A stretch of 64,000 nucleotides of DNA, from positions 832,001-896,000 of the forward strand of contig JASGJN010000020.1 of NCBI GenBank assembly GCA_049840735.1, read 5' to 3'. Positions within the stretch are counted from its first letter, which is position 1. Every line of letters begins with the position of its first letter. Made by a program: the position numbers and the translations under genes. Shown here one piece after another: positions 9,228-16,260 of this stretch. Origin of the DNA: Anaeromyxobacter sp. GTDB taxonomy: Bacteria; Myxococcota; Myxococcia; Myxococcales; Anaeromyxobacteraceae. The notes below the pieces were generated by a model that worked only from the letters and a program-made list of their open reading frames with translations, ran no database searches and was not told the origin of the DNA.

Positions 9228-9321
9228 TCACCGGAGCGGCAACGCCGCCGCGCGCCGGCGGCCGCGCGGACGGGCGGTCGGTGCCTTGCCCCGGGCTCGT
9301 CCGCAAAGTGATAATCGCGCC

Positions 9322-11757
9322 GTGGATCCCCACGACAAGCGAGGAGCCGAGCGCGCGCCCGCCGCGATGCTGGTCCGCGTGGCGTATGGGTCCATCGACG
9401 AGTTCGCCGAGAAGTTCGCGGTGAACGTGTCGCGCGGCGGCGTGTTCCTCCGCACCCGCGAGCCCAGGCCGGTGGGCACGGCGCTGTCGCTGGAGCTGCG
9501 GCTCCAGGACGGCTCCGCCGCGCTCCGGGCCCGGGGGGTGGTGCGCTGGGTCCAGACCGAGGACCTGCACGCCCACCCGCCCCGCGCGCCCGGTATCGGC
9601 GTCCAGTTCACCTGGCTGGACGAGCCCTCGCGCGAGCTGCTGGAGCGCATGGTGGCGCTCCGCGAGCGCGCCACGGCGGGGGCGCCCGGCCCCACCCTCA
9701 CCCCGCCGCCCATCGCCGCGGGCGCGCCGGCCGCGCCGCCGGTGCTCACGCCGCCGCCCGCGCCGGCCGTCACCGCGCCGCCGGTCCTGACGCCCGCCCC
9801 GGCCTTCACCCCGCCCCCGGCGCGGGTCCGGCCGGCCACCACGCCCGGGCCCATCCCGGTGCTGACGCCCTCGCCGACCCGCTCGCCGCCGCCCATCCCG
9901 GCGCCCGCGCCCGCCGAGGCGGCGCCGCCCGAGGCCGTCACCCCGCCGCAGCCCCCGCGCATCCCGGCCCAGGCCGACCTCTCCGCCCCGCACCGGATCG
10001 AGCAGCTCTCGGCCGGCCCGGCCCGGCTCGCGATCGGCCTGCCCGACGCGCCCGAGCCCATCACCAGGCTCTCGCGCACCATCATCGGCATCGACCTCGG
10101 CACCACCAACTCCTGCGCGGCGGTGGTGAAGGACGGCCGGCCCTACGTGATCCCCTCGCGCGAGGGCTACAACACCGTCCCGTCCATCGTGGCGCTCAAC
10201 GCGCGCAACCGGATCGTGGTCGGCCACCTCGCCAAGGCGCAGCTGCTCACCAACCCGCGCGCCACGGTCTGGGGCGCCAAGCGGCTGGTGGGCCGCCCCT
10301 TCGACTCGCAGGTGGTGCAGGAGATCAAGAGCAAGTTCGCCTACGAGATCGTGGCCGGCCCGGACGGCCTGGCCGCGGTGCAGCTGGGGCCGGAGACGCT
10401 CACGCTGGAGCAGGTCTCGGCGCTGGTGCTGCGCGAGGTGAAGGAGGTCGCGCAGAACCACCTCGGCGAGGAGGTGAACCGGGCGGTCATCACCGTGCCG
10501 GCCTACTACAACGAGCGGCAGCGCGCCGCGGTCCGGCTGGCGGGCGCGCTGGCGGGGCTGCAGGTGGAGCGGATCCTCAACGAGCCCACCGCCGCCGCCA
10601 TCGCCTACGCCCACGGGCGCCACCTCACCCAGCGCGTGATGGTCTACGACCTGGGCGGCGGCACCTTCGACGCCTCGGTGCTGGAGCTCTCGGACAACGT
10701 CTACGAGGTGGTCTCGACCGGCGGCGACACGTTCCTGGGCGGCGTGGACTTCGACGCCCGCATCGTGGACCGGCTCCTGGCCGACTGGGAGGCCCGGACC
10801 GGCGCGCCGTTCGAGGGGGACCGCGTGGCGCTGTCGCGCCTGGTGGACGCGGCCGAGCGGGCCAAGTGCGGCCTCTCCGAGCGGACCGAGTTCCCCATCC
10901 AGCTGCCGTTCCTGGCCATGCGCGACGGCCAGCCGGTGGGGCTGGAGACGGCGCTGGGGCGCGACGCCGTGGTCGGGCTGGTGGAGCCGCTGGTGGACCG
11001 GACGCTGGAGGTCTGCCAGGAGGTGCTGGCGGCCAAGGACCTCACGCCCGCCGACGTGGAGGAGATCCTGCTGGTGGGCGGCCAGTCGCGCATGCCGCTG
11101 GTCCACGAGAAGGTGGCCGCCTTCTTCGGCCGGGCGCCCTCGCGCGCCGTCCACCCCGACGAGGCGGTGGCGGTGGGCGCGGCGCTGCTGGCCCACTCCC
11201 TGGGCAGCGCCGAGGGGATGGTGCTGATCGACGTGCTGCCCATGTCGATCAACATCGGCCTGCCCGGCGGCCGCGTGAAGACCATCATCGAGCGGAACAC
11301 GCCGCTGCCGGCGCGCAAGCAGTACGGGCTGGCCACCACCCGCGACGGCCAGACCGAGTTCGAGCTGGTGGTGCTGCAAGGCGAGGGGCCGGCGGCCACC
11401 GACTGCGAGTACCTGGGGACGCTGCGCCTGACCGGGCTGCCGGCCGGACCGCGCGGCATGGTGAAGATCGCCGTCACCTTCGAGCTGGGCGCCGAGTGCC
11501 TGCTCACCGTGACCGCCCGCGAGCTCAACACCGGGCGGCAGGTGCAGGCGGTCATGTCCACGGTGGACGGGCCGGAGGCCGCGCGCCGGAAGCTGGACGA
11601 CGGCCTGATGCGCGGGGCCACCGGGGCCATCCCGCTGCAGACCACGCCGCCGGGCGGCTTCCCGCGCCCGCCGGCAGCGCCTGAGGTGCCGCCCATGCGC
11701 AAGGTCGGCCTGGGCGGGCTGATCCGGCGGCTGCTGGGCCGGGGCGAGGCGCGCTGA
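9322..11757 (+). CDS. TIGR02266/PilZ-like domain + Pro-rich linker + Hsp70 (DnaK-like) fusion
   Basis: KRGAER...NVSRGGVF...GIGVQF PilZ-like; [40 protein letters not shown] Hsp70 motifs; GTG start inferred. Confidence 0.85.
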
Positions 11758-13089: not shown

Positions 13090-13616
13090 CGCGCTGACCA
13101 CCCTTCCCTCACGTACTGCGCCGCGTAGGCCACGTAGTGGGCCGCGCTCACCGGCAGGTGCGCCAGCTCCTCCGGCGTGAGCGGGCGCTTCACCTTCGCC
13201 GGCTGCCCCAGCACCAGCGTGCCCGGGGGGACCACCATGCCCGGCGGGACCAGCGCCCCGGCGCCGACCATCGCGTCCGGGCCGATCACGGCCCCGTCCA
13301 GCACGATGGCCCCGATGCCGATCAGGCACCGGTCCTTGACCGTACAGCCGTGCAGCACGGCGCGGTGACCGACCGTGACGTCGTCGCCGAGGGTGGTGGG
13401 ATGGGTGTGCGAGGTCACGTGGACCACGCACTGGTCCTGGAGGTTGGTGCGGGCGCCGATGCGGACGGCGTTCACGTCACCGCGGACGACGGCCCCGAAC
13501 CAGAGCGAGCCGCCCTCCCCGATCTCCACGTCCCCGATCACCGCGCTGCCCTCCATCACGAAGACCGATGGGTGCAGGCGCGGCGACTTTCCGCCGAACG
13601 GCCGGATGATCGCCAT
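13086..13616 (-). CDS. Gamma carbonic anhydrase family protein (YrdA/CaiE-like)
   Basis: IGDVEIG, VVRGDVN, NLQD, VH, VGHRAVLHGC hexapeptide repeats with His ligands. Confidence 0.92.
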   Translation of the reverse strand: MAIIRPFGGKSPRLHPSVFVMEGSAVIGDVEIGEGGSLWFGAVVRGDVNAVRIGARTNLQDQCVVHVTSHTHPTTLGDDVTVGHRAVLHGCTVKDRCLIGIGAIVLDGAVIGPDAMVGAGALVPPGMVVPPGTLVLGQPAKVKRPLTPEELAHLPVSAAHYVAYAAQYVREGWSAR

Positions 13617-13860
13617 CAACGGCGGATGCTAAGAGATGTCCCACGGTTCGCCAAGTGGCAAAGCGTGGGCCAGGTCGGTTCGCCATCGGGCCCGCTCGGG
13701 CGTGGTCTGGCTTTCGCCAGCCTCATCCCGGGTTGGGCCCGTGGCCGTGCCGACGATTCGCCGAGCCACCGGCTTGCTTGCCGGTGTGGACGTCCGCCAT
13801 GCGAAGGACGGCTCGCGGGCGAAGAGGTCGGTTGACTCGGACCGGGCGTCTTGCCGCCCG
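13612..13860 (-). ncRNA. Putative omega-RNA scaffold plus flanking guide
   Basis: Nested stems at the tnpB 3' end and element end, including CUGGC-GAAA-GCCAG and CACCGGC/GCCGGTG; boundaries are inferred. Confidence 0.55.
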
Positions 13861-15614
13861 AGACAGCAAGGGCTTCGAAGAAGGCTCCCGATTTGTTCGC
13901 GGGCGCGCTTGGTCGCATCGTAGTCGACGCGCGCCGAGCCGGGCTCGCCGGGCCGATTGAGGACGAGGAAGGCGCCGAGGACCGCGGAGACGGCGTCCCT
14001 GTCCCCTTCCAGCCCGCATCGGGGGCAACGGTGGACCCGTTCGGCAAGCGACTTCTCCACCCGGGCGCCGCAGGGGCAGTGCTGGGACAGGGCTGTGGTC
14101 TGCGTGGGGATCCGGACCACGCCGCCAACGCCCCCGGCAAACGCAGCGACGGCCCGAGCCTCCCGGTCGATGGCAGCGACCAGCGTCCCCGGCGTGAACG
14201 CGGCCACACCGCGCCCCCATCTGCGCGCCCAGACGGAGATGGCCACGTCCTCGACGAAGAGGCGGTAGCCGTGAGTCCGCACAACCTCTGCCGCGGACTG
14301 CCGAGCCCGGCCGCGCCGTGCCTGGCCGCACGACGCTGCATCGGCAGCCTGCGCTGCGCGGAGAAGGCGGTAGCGCTTCGAGAGCGAGTCCCGCCGGTGG
14401 GCCTGGAGCGGGACGCCATCGAACCGCGCCAACCGTGGACCTCCAGGGATCACCTCGACCGGCGGGAGGCCGGCGGCAGCCCGCCGGCGGGCCCGCTTCT
14501 CCTGCCGCCTGGAGAGCTGGTACTCCGCCCGGTTTGCCGCCCGGCGCGACCGCTCCAGGGCACGCTGCCTGCGCCGTTCACGGCGCTTGCGACCCCGGTC
14601 CCGCACCTTGGCCTGGCCGTCCAGCTCCATCTTTGTGAGCCGCAGGCCCGCCCCAGCCATCTGGGAGACGACAGTCAAGTTGGACACGTTGACGTCAATC
14701 CCCGCCATGCGCTCCGCTTCGTCCTTGGCCGCCGCTTCCCGCCGCGCCTGCGTCGAAGGTGAGACGTACGGCTGGGCGAGGACCATCAGATGCGCCTCGT
14801 ACCGCCAGCCACCGGGCGCATACGGCGCGCGCGTACGCACGAGGTCGACCTTGTGCCAGCGGGCCGGGTCGACCAGGTGATGGTCCAGGATGGGCTGGTT
14901 GCACGGGGCGGTGGGGAGACGGACCGGCAGGACCAGGGCGCCTCCAGCCAGGCCGCTGAAGACCAGGGCCAGCGGCCCCTGGTAGGCCCACCAGTCGGTT
15001 CGCGGGGCAGCGGCCTCGGGGAGCTGGAGTCGCCTCGGCTGCACGAAGCTGCCGTCTGGCCTGGTGTACCTGGCCCGGTGGCCGGCGAGGGAGCCGTGGA
15101 GCCGGAAAGTCTCCCATTTCCGCTCCCGGGTGTGTGAGCGGGCCCGGCCAGGGAGCCGGGTGAAGTCGAACCAGCGCCCGACGTGGAGGAGCCCATGCCG
15201 CTTGCCGGTAGCGTCGGGGAACAGGTGGCGCTCCACCGACGTCCAGACCGAGTCGGCAAGGTGCATCGCCAGCGCCTTGGTGACGTTCCGCCGGAGGTGA
15301 GGCGCCGCGTCGAGGTGGGCGTAGGCTGTCTGCTCCAGCGCCTCACGCGTGAGTCCCAGTCTGGTGCGGGTCTCGGAGGCGCTTCGGGCCCGCGCATCCC
15401 CCGCCGCCCAGTAGGCCCGCACCCGGTCCCTTGCCGTCCGCTGCAGCGCTCGCCGGAGCTGGTAGGCCCCGGAGAAGATTCCCTCGAGCCGACGTCGCTG
15501 CACCGGGTCGTGGATGTCCAGCGCGAGCCGCAGCACAGAGAGCCCGTCCTCGGGCCGGCGGCTCCAGGGCCGCTGCCGGTTCGGACCACGGGTTGGCTTG
15601 GCAGACGCGCTCAC
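13629..15614 (-). CDS. tnpB: TnpB/Cas12-like RNA-guided RuvC endonuclease (C2c8/V-U2-like clade), ~661 aa
   Basis: RuvC-I AGIDVNVS, Arg-rich bridge region, RuvC-II LFVEDV, TTALSQHCPCG..HRCPRC zinc finger, RuvC-III DRDAVSA; GTG 15614 preferred as start, the ORF extends to 15821. Confidence 0.85.
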   Translation of the reverse strand: MSASAKPTRGPNRQRPWSRRPEDGLSVLRLALDIHDPVQRRRLEGIFSGAYQLRRALQRTARDRVRAYWAAGDARARSASETRTRLGLTREALEQTAYAHLDAAPHLRRNVTKALAMHLADSVWTSVERHLFPDATGKRHGLLHVGRWFDFTRLPGRARSHTRERKWETFRLHGSLAGHRARYTRPDGSFVQPRRLQLPEAAAPRTDWWAYQGPLALVFSGLAGGALVLPVRLPTAPCNQPILDHHLVDPARWHKVDLVRTRAPYAPGGWRYEAHLMVLAQPYVSPSTQARREAAAKDEAERMAGIDVNVSNLTVVSQMAGAGLRLTKMELDGQAKVRDRGRKRRERRRQRALERSRRAANRAEYQLSRRQEKRARRRAAAGLPPVEVIPGGPRLARFDGVPLQAHRRDSLSKRYRLLRAAQAADAASCGQARRGRARQSAAEVVRTHGYRLFVEDVAISVWARRWGRGVAAFTPGTLVAAIDREARAVAAFAGGVGGVVRIPTQTTALSQHCPCGARVEKSLAERVHRCPRCGLEGDRDAVSAVLGAFLVLNRPGEPGSARVDYDATKRAREQIGSLLRSPCCLGRQDARSESTDLFAREPSFAWRTSTPASKPVARRIVGTATGPTRDEAGESQTTPERARWRTDLAHALPLGEPWDIS

Positions 15615-15875
15615 CCGCTCATCGTGAATCCGGACCCTGACATTCCGTTCAGCACGACGGAGCAGGTCGTCCGCGGATCGACGGCGACCAAACCGGATCG
15701 TTCGCGACGCCGGCCTGGCGCCGTCACCGCAAAGCGCGCCCGCGTCGAGCACGTCCTCGCTCGCCTCAACGACTGGAGCGTCCTCGGGACCACCGCCGAC
15801 GGGGGTGCCACCCGAATGCACCGTCGCCGCCCGGCCTTCCTCTACGACCTCAAGCTCGAAGTTCGGGACGCCTCT
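13632..15875. mobile_element. Non-autonomous TIR element (IS5/ISL2-derived) carrying a TnpB-like nuclease
   Basis: Ends AGAGATGTCCC (13632-13642) and GGGACGCCTCT (15865-15875) form a 9/11 inverted repeat; flanked by TA (13630-31) and TG (15876-77); removing it restores the vanZ frame (..ARASIRR*) with a TGATG overlap into the next gene. Confidence 0.85.
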
Positions 15876-15878
15876 TGG
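15690..15878 (+). pseudogene. 3' relic of an IS5-family (ISL2/IS112-like, Harbinger-related) DDE transposase
   Basis: Across frameshifts reads NRIVRD..WRRHRK/RARVEHVLARLNDWSVL/RDHRRRG../AFLYDLKLEVRDAS; contains the R..VE...ARL..W catalytic-Glu signature and ends in the right TIR. Confidence 0.75.
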
Positions 15879-16260
15879 CCCGCGCCCCGGCGCGCCGCAA
15901 GGCGATGGTCACCGCGACCGCGCCGGCCAGCGCCCCGGCGGTATCGGCGGCCCAGTCGGTCGGGTCGCTGGAGCGGCCCGGCACGTAGGCCTGGTGCCAC
16001 TCGTCGGTCACGCCGTAGAGGCTGCCCACCGCGGCGGCCAGCAGCAGCACGCGCGCAGATCGGACCCCCGCCGCGTGCAGGGCGCCGGCCAGCAGCGCGC
16101 CCAGCACCGCGTAGCCCGCGCCGTGCGAGAGCTTGTCGTGCAGGAGGAAGGCCTCGGGGAACGGCGGCCGGGCGAGCGACGAGAGCCAGGCGATGAGCCC
16201 GGCCCACGCCACCGCGGCGAGCCCCAGCGCCAGGGCGGTGCGCCTCGCTGCGCCGCTCAC
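15850..16260 (-). CDS. VanZ family membrane protein (C-terminus altered by the insertion)
   Basis: DKLSHGAGY, YGVTDEWHQAYVPGR, DWAADTAG motifs; GTGA overlap with the miaB stop. Confidence 0.85.
   Translation of the reverse strand: MSGAARRTALALGLAAVAWAGLIAWLSSLARPPFPEAFLLHDKLSHGAGYAVLGALLAGALHAAGVRSARVLLLAAAVGSLYGVTDEWHQAYVPGRSSDPTDWAADTAGALAGAVAVTIALRRAGARAKRRPELRA

Follow-up and report, generated by a model that had tools for sequence, protein, structure and literature searches.

An ISL2-like transposon of Anaeromyxobacter sp. combining a relic DDE transposase with an intact tnpB gene and a predicted omegaRNA

In a 64,000-nucleotide stretch of the Anaeromyxobacter sp. genome (GCA_049840735.1, contig JASGJN010000020.1; hereafter the window) a 2244-bp element is inserted at a CTAG site at positions 13632-15875. 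As judged from sequence comparison, it is a non-autonomous deletion derivative of a composite element of about 2.75 kb, in which tnpB and a DDE transposase gene lie between shared terminal inverted repeats (TIRs). Our preferred interpretation, which we regard as probable, is a non-autonomous ISL2-like insertion sequence of the IS5 family with a stably captured TnpB-omegaRNA module that would restore or spread the element by RNA-guided cutting. The initial annotation had already delimited the 2244-bp segment by inverted ends with 9/11 matching positions; its coordinates and content were confirmed, and four further two-ended copies exist in the same genome. The element and its surroundings comprise the following features:

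13609..13628, minus strand: predicted guide, the host flank just past the TIR, inferred from TnpB/Fanzor biology
13629..15614, minus strand: tnpB, about 661 aa, intact (ORF, domain matches, conserved motifs, dN/dS)
13630..13631, no strand: left target-site duplication TA (target C-TA-G; empty site in 10/14 loci)
13630..13860, minus strand: predicted omegaRNA scaffold, about 230 nt (covariation, z-score, dN/dS of the tail, disorder)
13632..13648, plus strand: TIR at the tnpB 3' end, AGAGATGTCCCACGGTT, common to copies and relatives
15653..15875, plus strand: relic 3' end of an IS5/ISL2-like DDE transposase gene, aligned to intact relatives
15859..15875, minus strand: TIR at the transposase end, AGAGGCGTCCCGAACTT read inward, common to copies and relatives
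15876..15877, no strand: right duplication, TA mutated to TG (empty-site comparison and reading frame)

The left end AGAGATGTCCC begins at 13632 and is preceded by C-TA, the right end GGGACGCCTCT stops at 15875 and is followed by TG-G. Both ends agree at 9/11 and 11/17 positions, a match that falls outside the top 25 by length of the 1074 inverted pairs in window 12-18 kb and is weak when taken alone. The TIRs are nevertheless regarded as real, because copies in the genome end at the same bases, orthologous sites are empty and homologous loci carry the same TIR. Comparison of the ends and of the whole element with the host genome, as proposed in the initial annotation, revealed five further related copies at different sites, with homology ending at the same bases as in the window element. 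Four of them (C26, C16, C22 and C13) are two-ended with the pattern CTA-AGAGTTGTCCC ... GGGACAGCTCC-TAG, and C2 has the tnpB end only. The five are 85-98% alike overall, and each has its own internal deletion when mapped on the full element; the two-ended ones are 93-98% alike in their overlaps and 88-91% alike to the window copy. C13 is a 547-bp miniature retaining the whole omegaRNA region, which could feed guides to the window TnpB in trans.

The empty site ATGCTAGCCCGCG with joined flanks was detected in 10 of 14 orthologous loci of related genomes (one locus differs and three are without flank match). From this we deduced that CTAG is the target, that TA is duplicated and that the TG on the right, correctly noted earlier together with the TA on the left, is a later change of the duplicated TA. 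A 4-bp duplication of CTAG is ruled out: the junctions have the sequences CTAA and TTAG, and only one CTAG is present at the empty site. The change to TG is synonymous within the interrupted upstream host ORF, the last four codons of which were replaced through the insertion; CTAG is no host stop codon at this site.

The element is located downstream of miaB, between an ORF which we take to be vanZ-like, and for which no Pfam match was obtained, and a hexapeptide-repeat gamma-carbonic-anhydrase-like gene. In relatives the stop codon of the upstream ORF and the start of the gamma-carbonic-anhydrase-like gene overlap in TGATG (window 13616-13631 and 15850-15900); here the insertion separates both genes and alters the last residues of the upstream protein. 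The tnpB gene runs in the direction of the miaB operon, whose transcription it may use. A scan for sigma-70 promoters gave no sites, which at 72% GC carries no information. Among the 20 largest repeat families listed for window 12-18 kb none is regularly spaced, so that the locus shows no adjacent array of a CRISPR-Cas12 system. Elsewhere, window 9228-11757 (plus strand) encodes a DnaK/Hsp70-like protein with a Pro-rich linker (read by eye), the N-terminal region of which presumably resembles myxobacterial TIGR02266/PilZ-type domains.

The nuclease gene is the long minus-strand ORF ending at TAG 13629-13631, a stop codon composed of the duplicated TA and base 13629. Its start is probably the GTG at 15614, from where the homologues begin, resulting in 661 aa. 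The RuvC/zinc-finger nuclease read from the letters at first was verified: the ORF passes the cut-off of Pfam Cas12f1-like_TNB with E 6e-6, and its match to NCBIfam guided_TnpB (E 7.5e-10) stays short of the required 100 bits. Numbered as in P0001, the protein has the RuvC triad D316/E464/D549 and a C4 zinc finger formed by C522/C524/C539/C542. All of these residues are invariant across 26 close homologues; among 120 homologues the RuvC-I aspartate was counted in 120, the glutamate in 115, DRD in 117 and the zinc finger in 120, the motifs GIDVN and DRDAV being slightly atypical. AF2 modelled the protein poorly (pLDDT 56), and Foldseek ranks 1-11 are Cas12f, TranC, Cas12m and TnpB, all of them weak (best E 8.5e-4); a PDB sequence search with the TnpB alignment gave no matches. 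On the basis of the D-E-D triad, the zinc finger and the TnpB/Cas12f-like predicted fold the protein is assigned to TnpB (OMEGA). Its length is unusual for the kind, and long helices rich in Arg separate RuvC-I from RuvC-II. In 10 comparisons with the window copy the dN/dS of the tnpB core was 0.17-0.25 (Nei-Gojobori; approximate values, as pS is high), which indicates purifying selection on the core.

The last ~230 nt of tnpB, ending at the TIR, form a conserved structured RNA with strong covariation, the predicted omegaRNA, which overlaps the last ~78 codons of the gene. For 59 sequences with <90% identity, taken from 85, RNAalifold proposed 47 pairs, 29 of them with double-sided changes. 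After addition of the terminal stem and a pseudoknot by hand 94% of the cells pair and 33 of 59 pairs show double-sided changes; the covariation score is 0.306 vs. 0.138 for shuffled and <=0.076 for slid alignments, and the top mutual-information pairs are mostly those canonical pairs of the model. The window copy folds alike (z -4.83). The terminal stem is weaker (77% paired), and the UGAG/CUUA pseudoknot, which would engage the duplicated TA, is without covariation support because it is invariant; no UGAG is apparent in the members from Dactylosporangium or Mycobacterium. Rfam returned two chance-level matches only. The TIR at 13632..13648, which in frame encodes the last TnpB codons, is also the predicted 3' end of the omegaRNA. 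TnpB residues 591-670 are disordered in the AF2 model, and for this tail dN/dS is 0.8-1.4 and pS 0.15-0.33 vs. 0.52-0.65 in the core. The dN/dS together with the low pS indicates that the constraint acts on the nucleotides, and a functional C-terminal protein tail as its cause is ruled out by the disorder and the dN/dS. The locus carries the conserved structured 3' RNA with a sharp boundary between scaffold and flank that is expected of OMEGA systems. The predicted guide overlaps the start of the gamma-carbonic-anhydrase-like gene; its exact start is inferred. For the five copies tested, no other genomic target with CTAG plus the first 12 guide bases (<=2 mismatches) was found. The last TIR base is T in 73/73 tnpB ends, whereas the equivalent base differs in 8/51 transposase ends (Fisher p 0.0006, inflated by kinship); the invariant T would fit self-avoidance or the pseudoknot.

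On the other strand most of the transposase gene is deleted and the remainder is frameshifted. The tail gave no Pfam or NCBIfam match of its own. Against the transposase of an intact relative it can be aligned over residues 204-252 (E 4e-8), in agreement with the decayed DDE transposase tail postulated beforehand. In relatives the stretch from the tnpB start to the distal TIR encodes a transposase of ~250 aa, divergent from tnpB. All of seven intact relatives tested matched DDE_Tnp_4 above the Pfam cut-off and HTH_Tnp_4 (five above cut-off); the best NCBIfam match is IS5_4, below cut-off. Invariant residues are D103, D151, D173, P185 and R205-x3-E209, which fit most of the IS5/PHIS motif spacing given in PMC4122938. 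The same source supports the relationship between IS5/ISL2 and Harbinger on which the initial annotation had relied. With ~17-bp TIRs and TA duplicated in CTAG, corresponding to the short TIRs and 2-3 bp duplications of IS5/ISL2, the transposase is classified as IS5 family and, by its Pfam domains, as probably ISL2-like.

A search for TnpB homologues yielded 976 proteins at E<=0.001, the best 120 of which are ~600-780 aa long and 62-80% identical. The loci analysed comprise 80 of 91 metagenome matches and those on 49 genome contigs; most of the contigs belong to myxobacteria, among them Anaeromyxobacteraceae and Kofleriaceae. By a motif test the TIR at the tnpB end was detected in 80/88 eligible loci, the one at the transposase end in 58/75 and both in 48, of which 35 span 2.71-2.84 kb. 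As this test required TA/TAG and is circular for the flanks, the count was redone on the TIR core alone (11 loci without core were dropped): CT/TAG is found in 73/73 distinct tnpB ends, and CTA precedes 51/55 transposase ends. The full element of ~2.75 kb reads C-TA[TIR <-tnp / tnpB-> TIR]TA-G, with imperfect TIRs of ~17 bp. Both ORFs usually read through their own TIR and stop at the target-site TAG, and 102/120 TnpB homologues have RD or WD immediately before the final two residues. Beyond CTAG/TAG no conservation of the insertion site was seen in 70 and 75 distinct flanks, which rules out a target-adjacent motif (TAM) longer than CTAG. An intact divergent transposase ORF is present in 41 of 77 loci having the transposase end. 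Both the composite arrangement and the non-autonomous state of the window copy, as suggested in the initial annotation, were borne out by many relatives, in which the TIRs and the CTAG/TA target are the same.

This layout ranges from Myxococcota to plasmids of Actinomycetota. The plasmid search matched six records, four of which were fetched; three (Euzebya, Mycobacteroides and Mycobacterium; TnpB identity 44-48%) exhibit the same layout and flanks, and the Streptomyces member has the tnpB end and no transposase upstream. The family is sparse: at least 6 of 401 genomes of the host phylum contain a member, as do 2 of 201 genomes of the class Actinomycetes, one of which was the search centre; in a phage collection there was no match to the family. 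TnpB and transposase distances correlate with a Mantel rho of 0.90 (16 pairs), or 0.75 without the plasmid pairs (13 pairs), each with 0/2000 permutations; both genes co-diverge across two phyla.

Several loci deviate from the common pattern. One to three tandem TTAG units directly follow TAG in 5 of 146 distinct flanks (L096, L099, L115 and L129 at the transposase end, L081 at the tnpB end) and at 0/2830 CTAG sites of the host genome; they are possibly footprints of repeated excision with re-insertion, or slippage. Members without transposase from Dactylosporangium and one from a metagenome (L042:2887-5015, L044, L120:1333-3400) have another TIR (AGGCGTGTTT ... AAACAG) and yet the same CTA/TAG flanks; they may have been mobilised by, or have moved into, a different IS5 subgroup. 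A 3.7-kb member (L038:1302-4998), ~0.9 kb above the usual length, and L002, with a second DDE transposase immediately upstream of tnpB, are probably nested insertions. On a Mycobacterium plasmid the composite element has, at a distance of ~0.7 kb, an IS607 element as neighbour (L161:5164-6704), which is unrelated and encodes a TnpB of its own.

TIR-bounded elements with DDE transposase and TnpB, the ISL2 type included, are already known and catalogued by computer, and the novelty implied by the initial annotation was thus overstated. Altae-Tran et al. (2023; PMC10691335) described six such prokaryotic branches, DDE-1 to DDE-6, and a 2026 review citing them names ISL2, IS630 and IS1031 as DDE types (PMC13565253). 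Like these branches, the present clade combines TnpB and a DDE transposase within inverted terminal repeats, has the tnpB 3' end at the transposon end (<250 bp) and includes transposase-less copies with the same ends. DDE-6 is ruled out, being IS630, and DDE-5, described with a TA motif at 8 bp distance from the end and as one of the branches with rearranged catalytic sites (PMC10691335), does not fit. As members occur in complete RefSeq plasmids, the clade is on balance likely to be one of the described branches, with which it was compared by description. For an ISL2 branch the accessible text of PMC10691335 states neither an omegaRNA structure nor a CTAG target or a TAM; for the present clade there are a structure model, the CTAG target and a predicted TAM. 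Our literature search, with subscription journals largely outside its coverage, found no paper describing the clade or testing an ISL2-TnpB. Table S5 of PMC10691335 contains a 676-aa 'Actinobacteria specific' active TnpB of Streptomyces bingchenggensis, listed as non-mobile, with a length like that of the clade.

With the TnpBs of IS200/IS605 and IS607 (e.g., ISDra2) the window protein shares the RuvC D-E-D triad, in which a C4 zinc finger is placed between the E and the second D, the structured RNA overlapping the tnpB 3' end and presumably the derivation of the guide from the flank. Those elements differ by HUH or serine transposases, asymmetric ends and lack of a duplication, and their TnpBs typically have 300-450 aa (PMC10691335) vs. 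~660 aa here. The TIRs, the TA duplication and the absence of any Y1 or serine transposase among 115 ORFs upstream of 18 loci (17 without the usual transposase end, and L159) speak against membership in either group and against IS605/IS607-type ends, which would have contradicted the initial annotation. Fanzor1/2 in eukaryotic TIR transposons including Harbinger are likewise OMEGA nucleases inside elements with TIRs and target-site duplications, with the 5' duplication in the TAM and the 3' duplication in the scaffold (PMC13565253), as is predicted here. In Fanzors, however, the RuvC-II glutamate precedes the zinc finger by about six residues (PMC13565253), whereas E464 lies 58 residues ahead of C522. 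This rules out a Fanzor or pro-Fanzor with rearranged RuvC-II, and the likeness is therefore considered convergent.

Related transposases without tnpB were found in 18 of 19 Actinomycetes loci. Of 15 such solo loci scanned, about 5 showed both ends, spaced by ~880 bp and carrying a TIR identical or related to that of the composite. These solo ISL2-group elements, which we take to be IS112-like, likewise encode a ~250-aa HTH_Tnp_4 and DDE_Tnp_4 transposase and have CTA/TAG flanks; they lack tnpB and omegaRNA, and the composite has ~2 kb more between the transposase start and one TIR. As they share the TIR family, the composite element arose from a solo element of this sort.

In the mechanism that we favour, a transposase acting in trans would excise the element and insert it at CTAG. 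Transcription through tnpB would yield an omegaRNA with a scaffold ending in TIR plus TA and the adjoining host DNA as guide, and the remaining part of the target, CTA(G), is predicted to be the TAM by analogy with TnpB and Fanzor. Whenever healing returns a donor site to CTAG, or an allele lacking the element enters the cell, TnpB would recognise the TAM and the guide match and cut, and recombination with an occupied copy would then restore or spread the element. The occupied junction would be spared since it reads TTAG before the guide instead of the CTAG of the empty site. Homing pays only if excision often heals precisely. Harbinger-type elements excise precisely in yeast assays, through end joining (PMC4561436), and the two Ku genes encoded by the host genome are counted in favour of such healing. 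DDE excision by itself already leaves a break, so that the benefit of a homing nuclease is puzzling (PMC13565253, section 6.2). It is also weighed against by the thriving tnpB-less relatives and by the loss of tnpB, which is nearly as frequent as that of the transposase gene (12 vs. 17 among the 48 two-ended loci; the motif test applied was strict). The mutated right duplication and the lack of an assembled intact transposase gene in the host genome (94% complete) count against our explanation as well.

These decay counts also bear on an unlikely alternative, namely that an active TnpB-omegaRNA mainly drives the element into empty alleles (multicopy plasmids, incoming DNA) or kills element-free cells or replicons, however excision heals. 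It would be in line with tnpB remaining intact where the transposase gene is decayed, with the members on Actinomycetota plasmids and with a reported plasmid gene-drive role of TnpB (bioRxiv 10.1101/2025.02.20.638934); the nearly equal frequency of the reverse decay disagrees, as does the position of the host-genome copies on large contigs amid housekeeping-type genes where checked. Even less probable is a ribonucleoprotein which binds without cutting (cf. Cas12m, Cas12k, TldR) and serves as a regulator or targeting aid, e.g., by damping or steering the transposase. The unusual protein length with its Arg-rich helices, Cas12m among the fold matches and the tandem TTAG units, hinting at one site reused, could be read this way, but all three catalytic acids are conserved, insertion sites are unconserved beyond CTAG and solo elements share the target without TnpB.

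The last alternative considered, an IS605/IS607-type tnpB that inserted once into an IS5 element and is passive cargo, is largely refuted and very improbable. Capture must have happened at some time, given the ~880-bp solo elements of the same TIR family. The omegaRNA and the ORF reach the TIR itself, however, leaving no separate right end, and purifying selection on tnpB, the co-divergence across two phyla and the missing Y1 or serine transposases all oppose a passenger. The initial annotation had named such a single insertion as a possible refutation of its proposal.

More tentatively, and in our view rather doubtfully, the clade may represent an uncatalogued or uncharacterised prokaryotic counterpart of Fanzor in Harbinger, in which an ISL2-type cut-and-paste element took up a large TnpB, the omegaRNA 3' end is built of TIR and TA, CTA(G) is the TAM, TTAG provides self-protection through a single base and the nuclease is retained via precise excision. 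If this is true, precise healing after ISL2/Harbinger-type excision would explain why an OMEGA nuclease is kept in a DDE element. Prokaryotic DDE-TnpB elements are described as rare and puzzling, and their mechanistic study has been called for (PMC13565253). The family offers a test set for it, with exact ends, a proven empty site, intact transposase-TnpB pairs, a covariation-backed omegaRNA model and a TAM prediction, and possibly a nuclease whose TAM, CTA(G), is short, though at ~660 aa not a compact one. It could show whether RNA-guided restorative homing extends to bacterial cut-and-paste elements.
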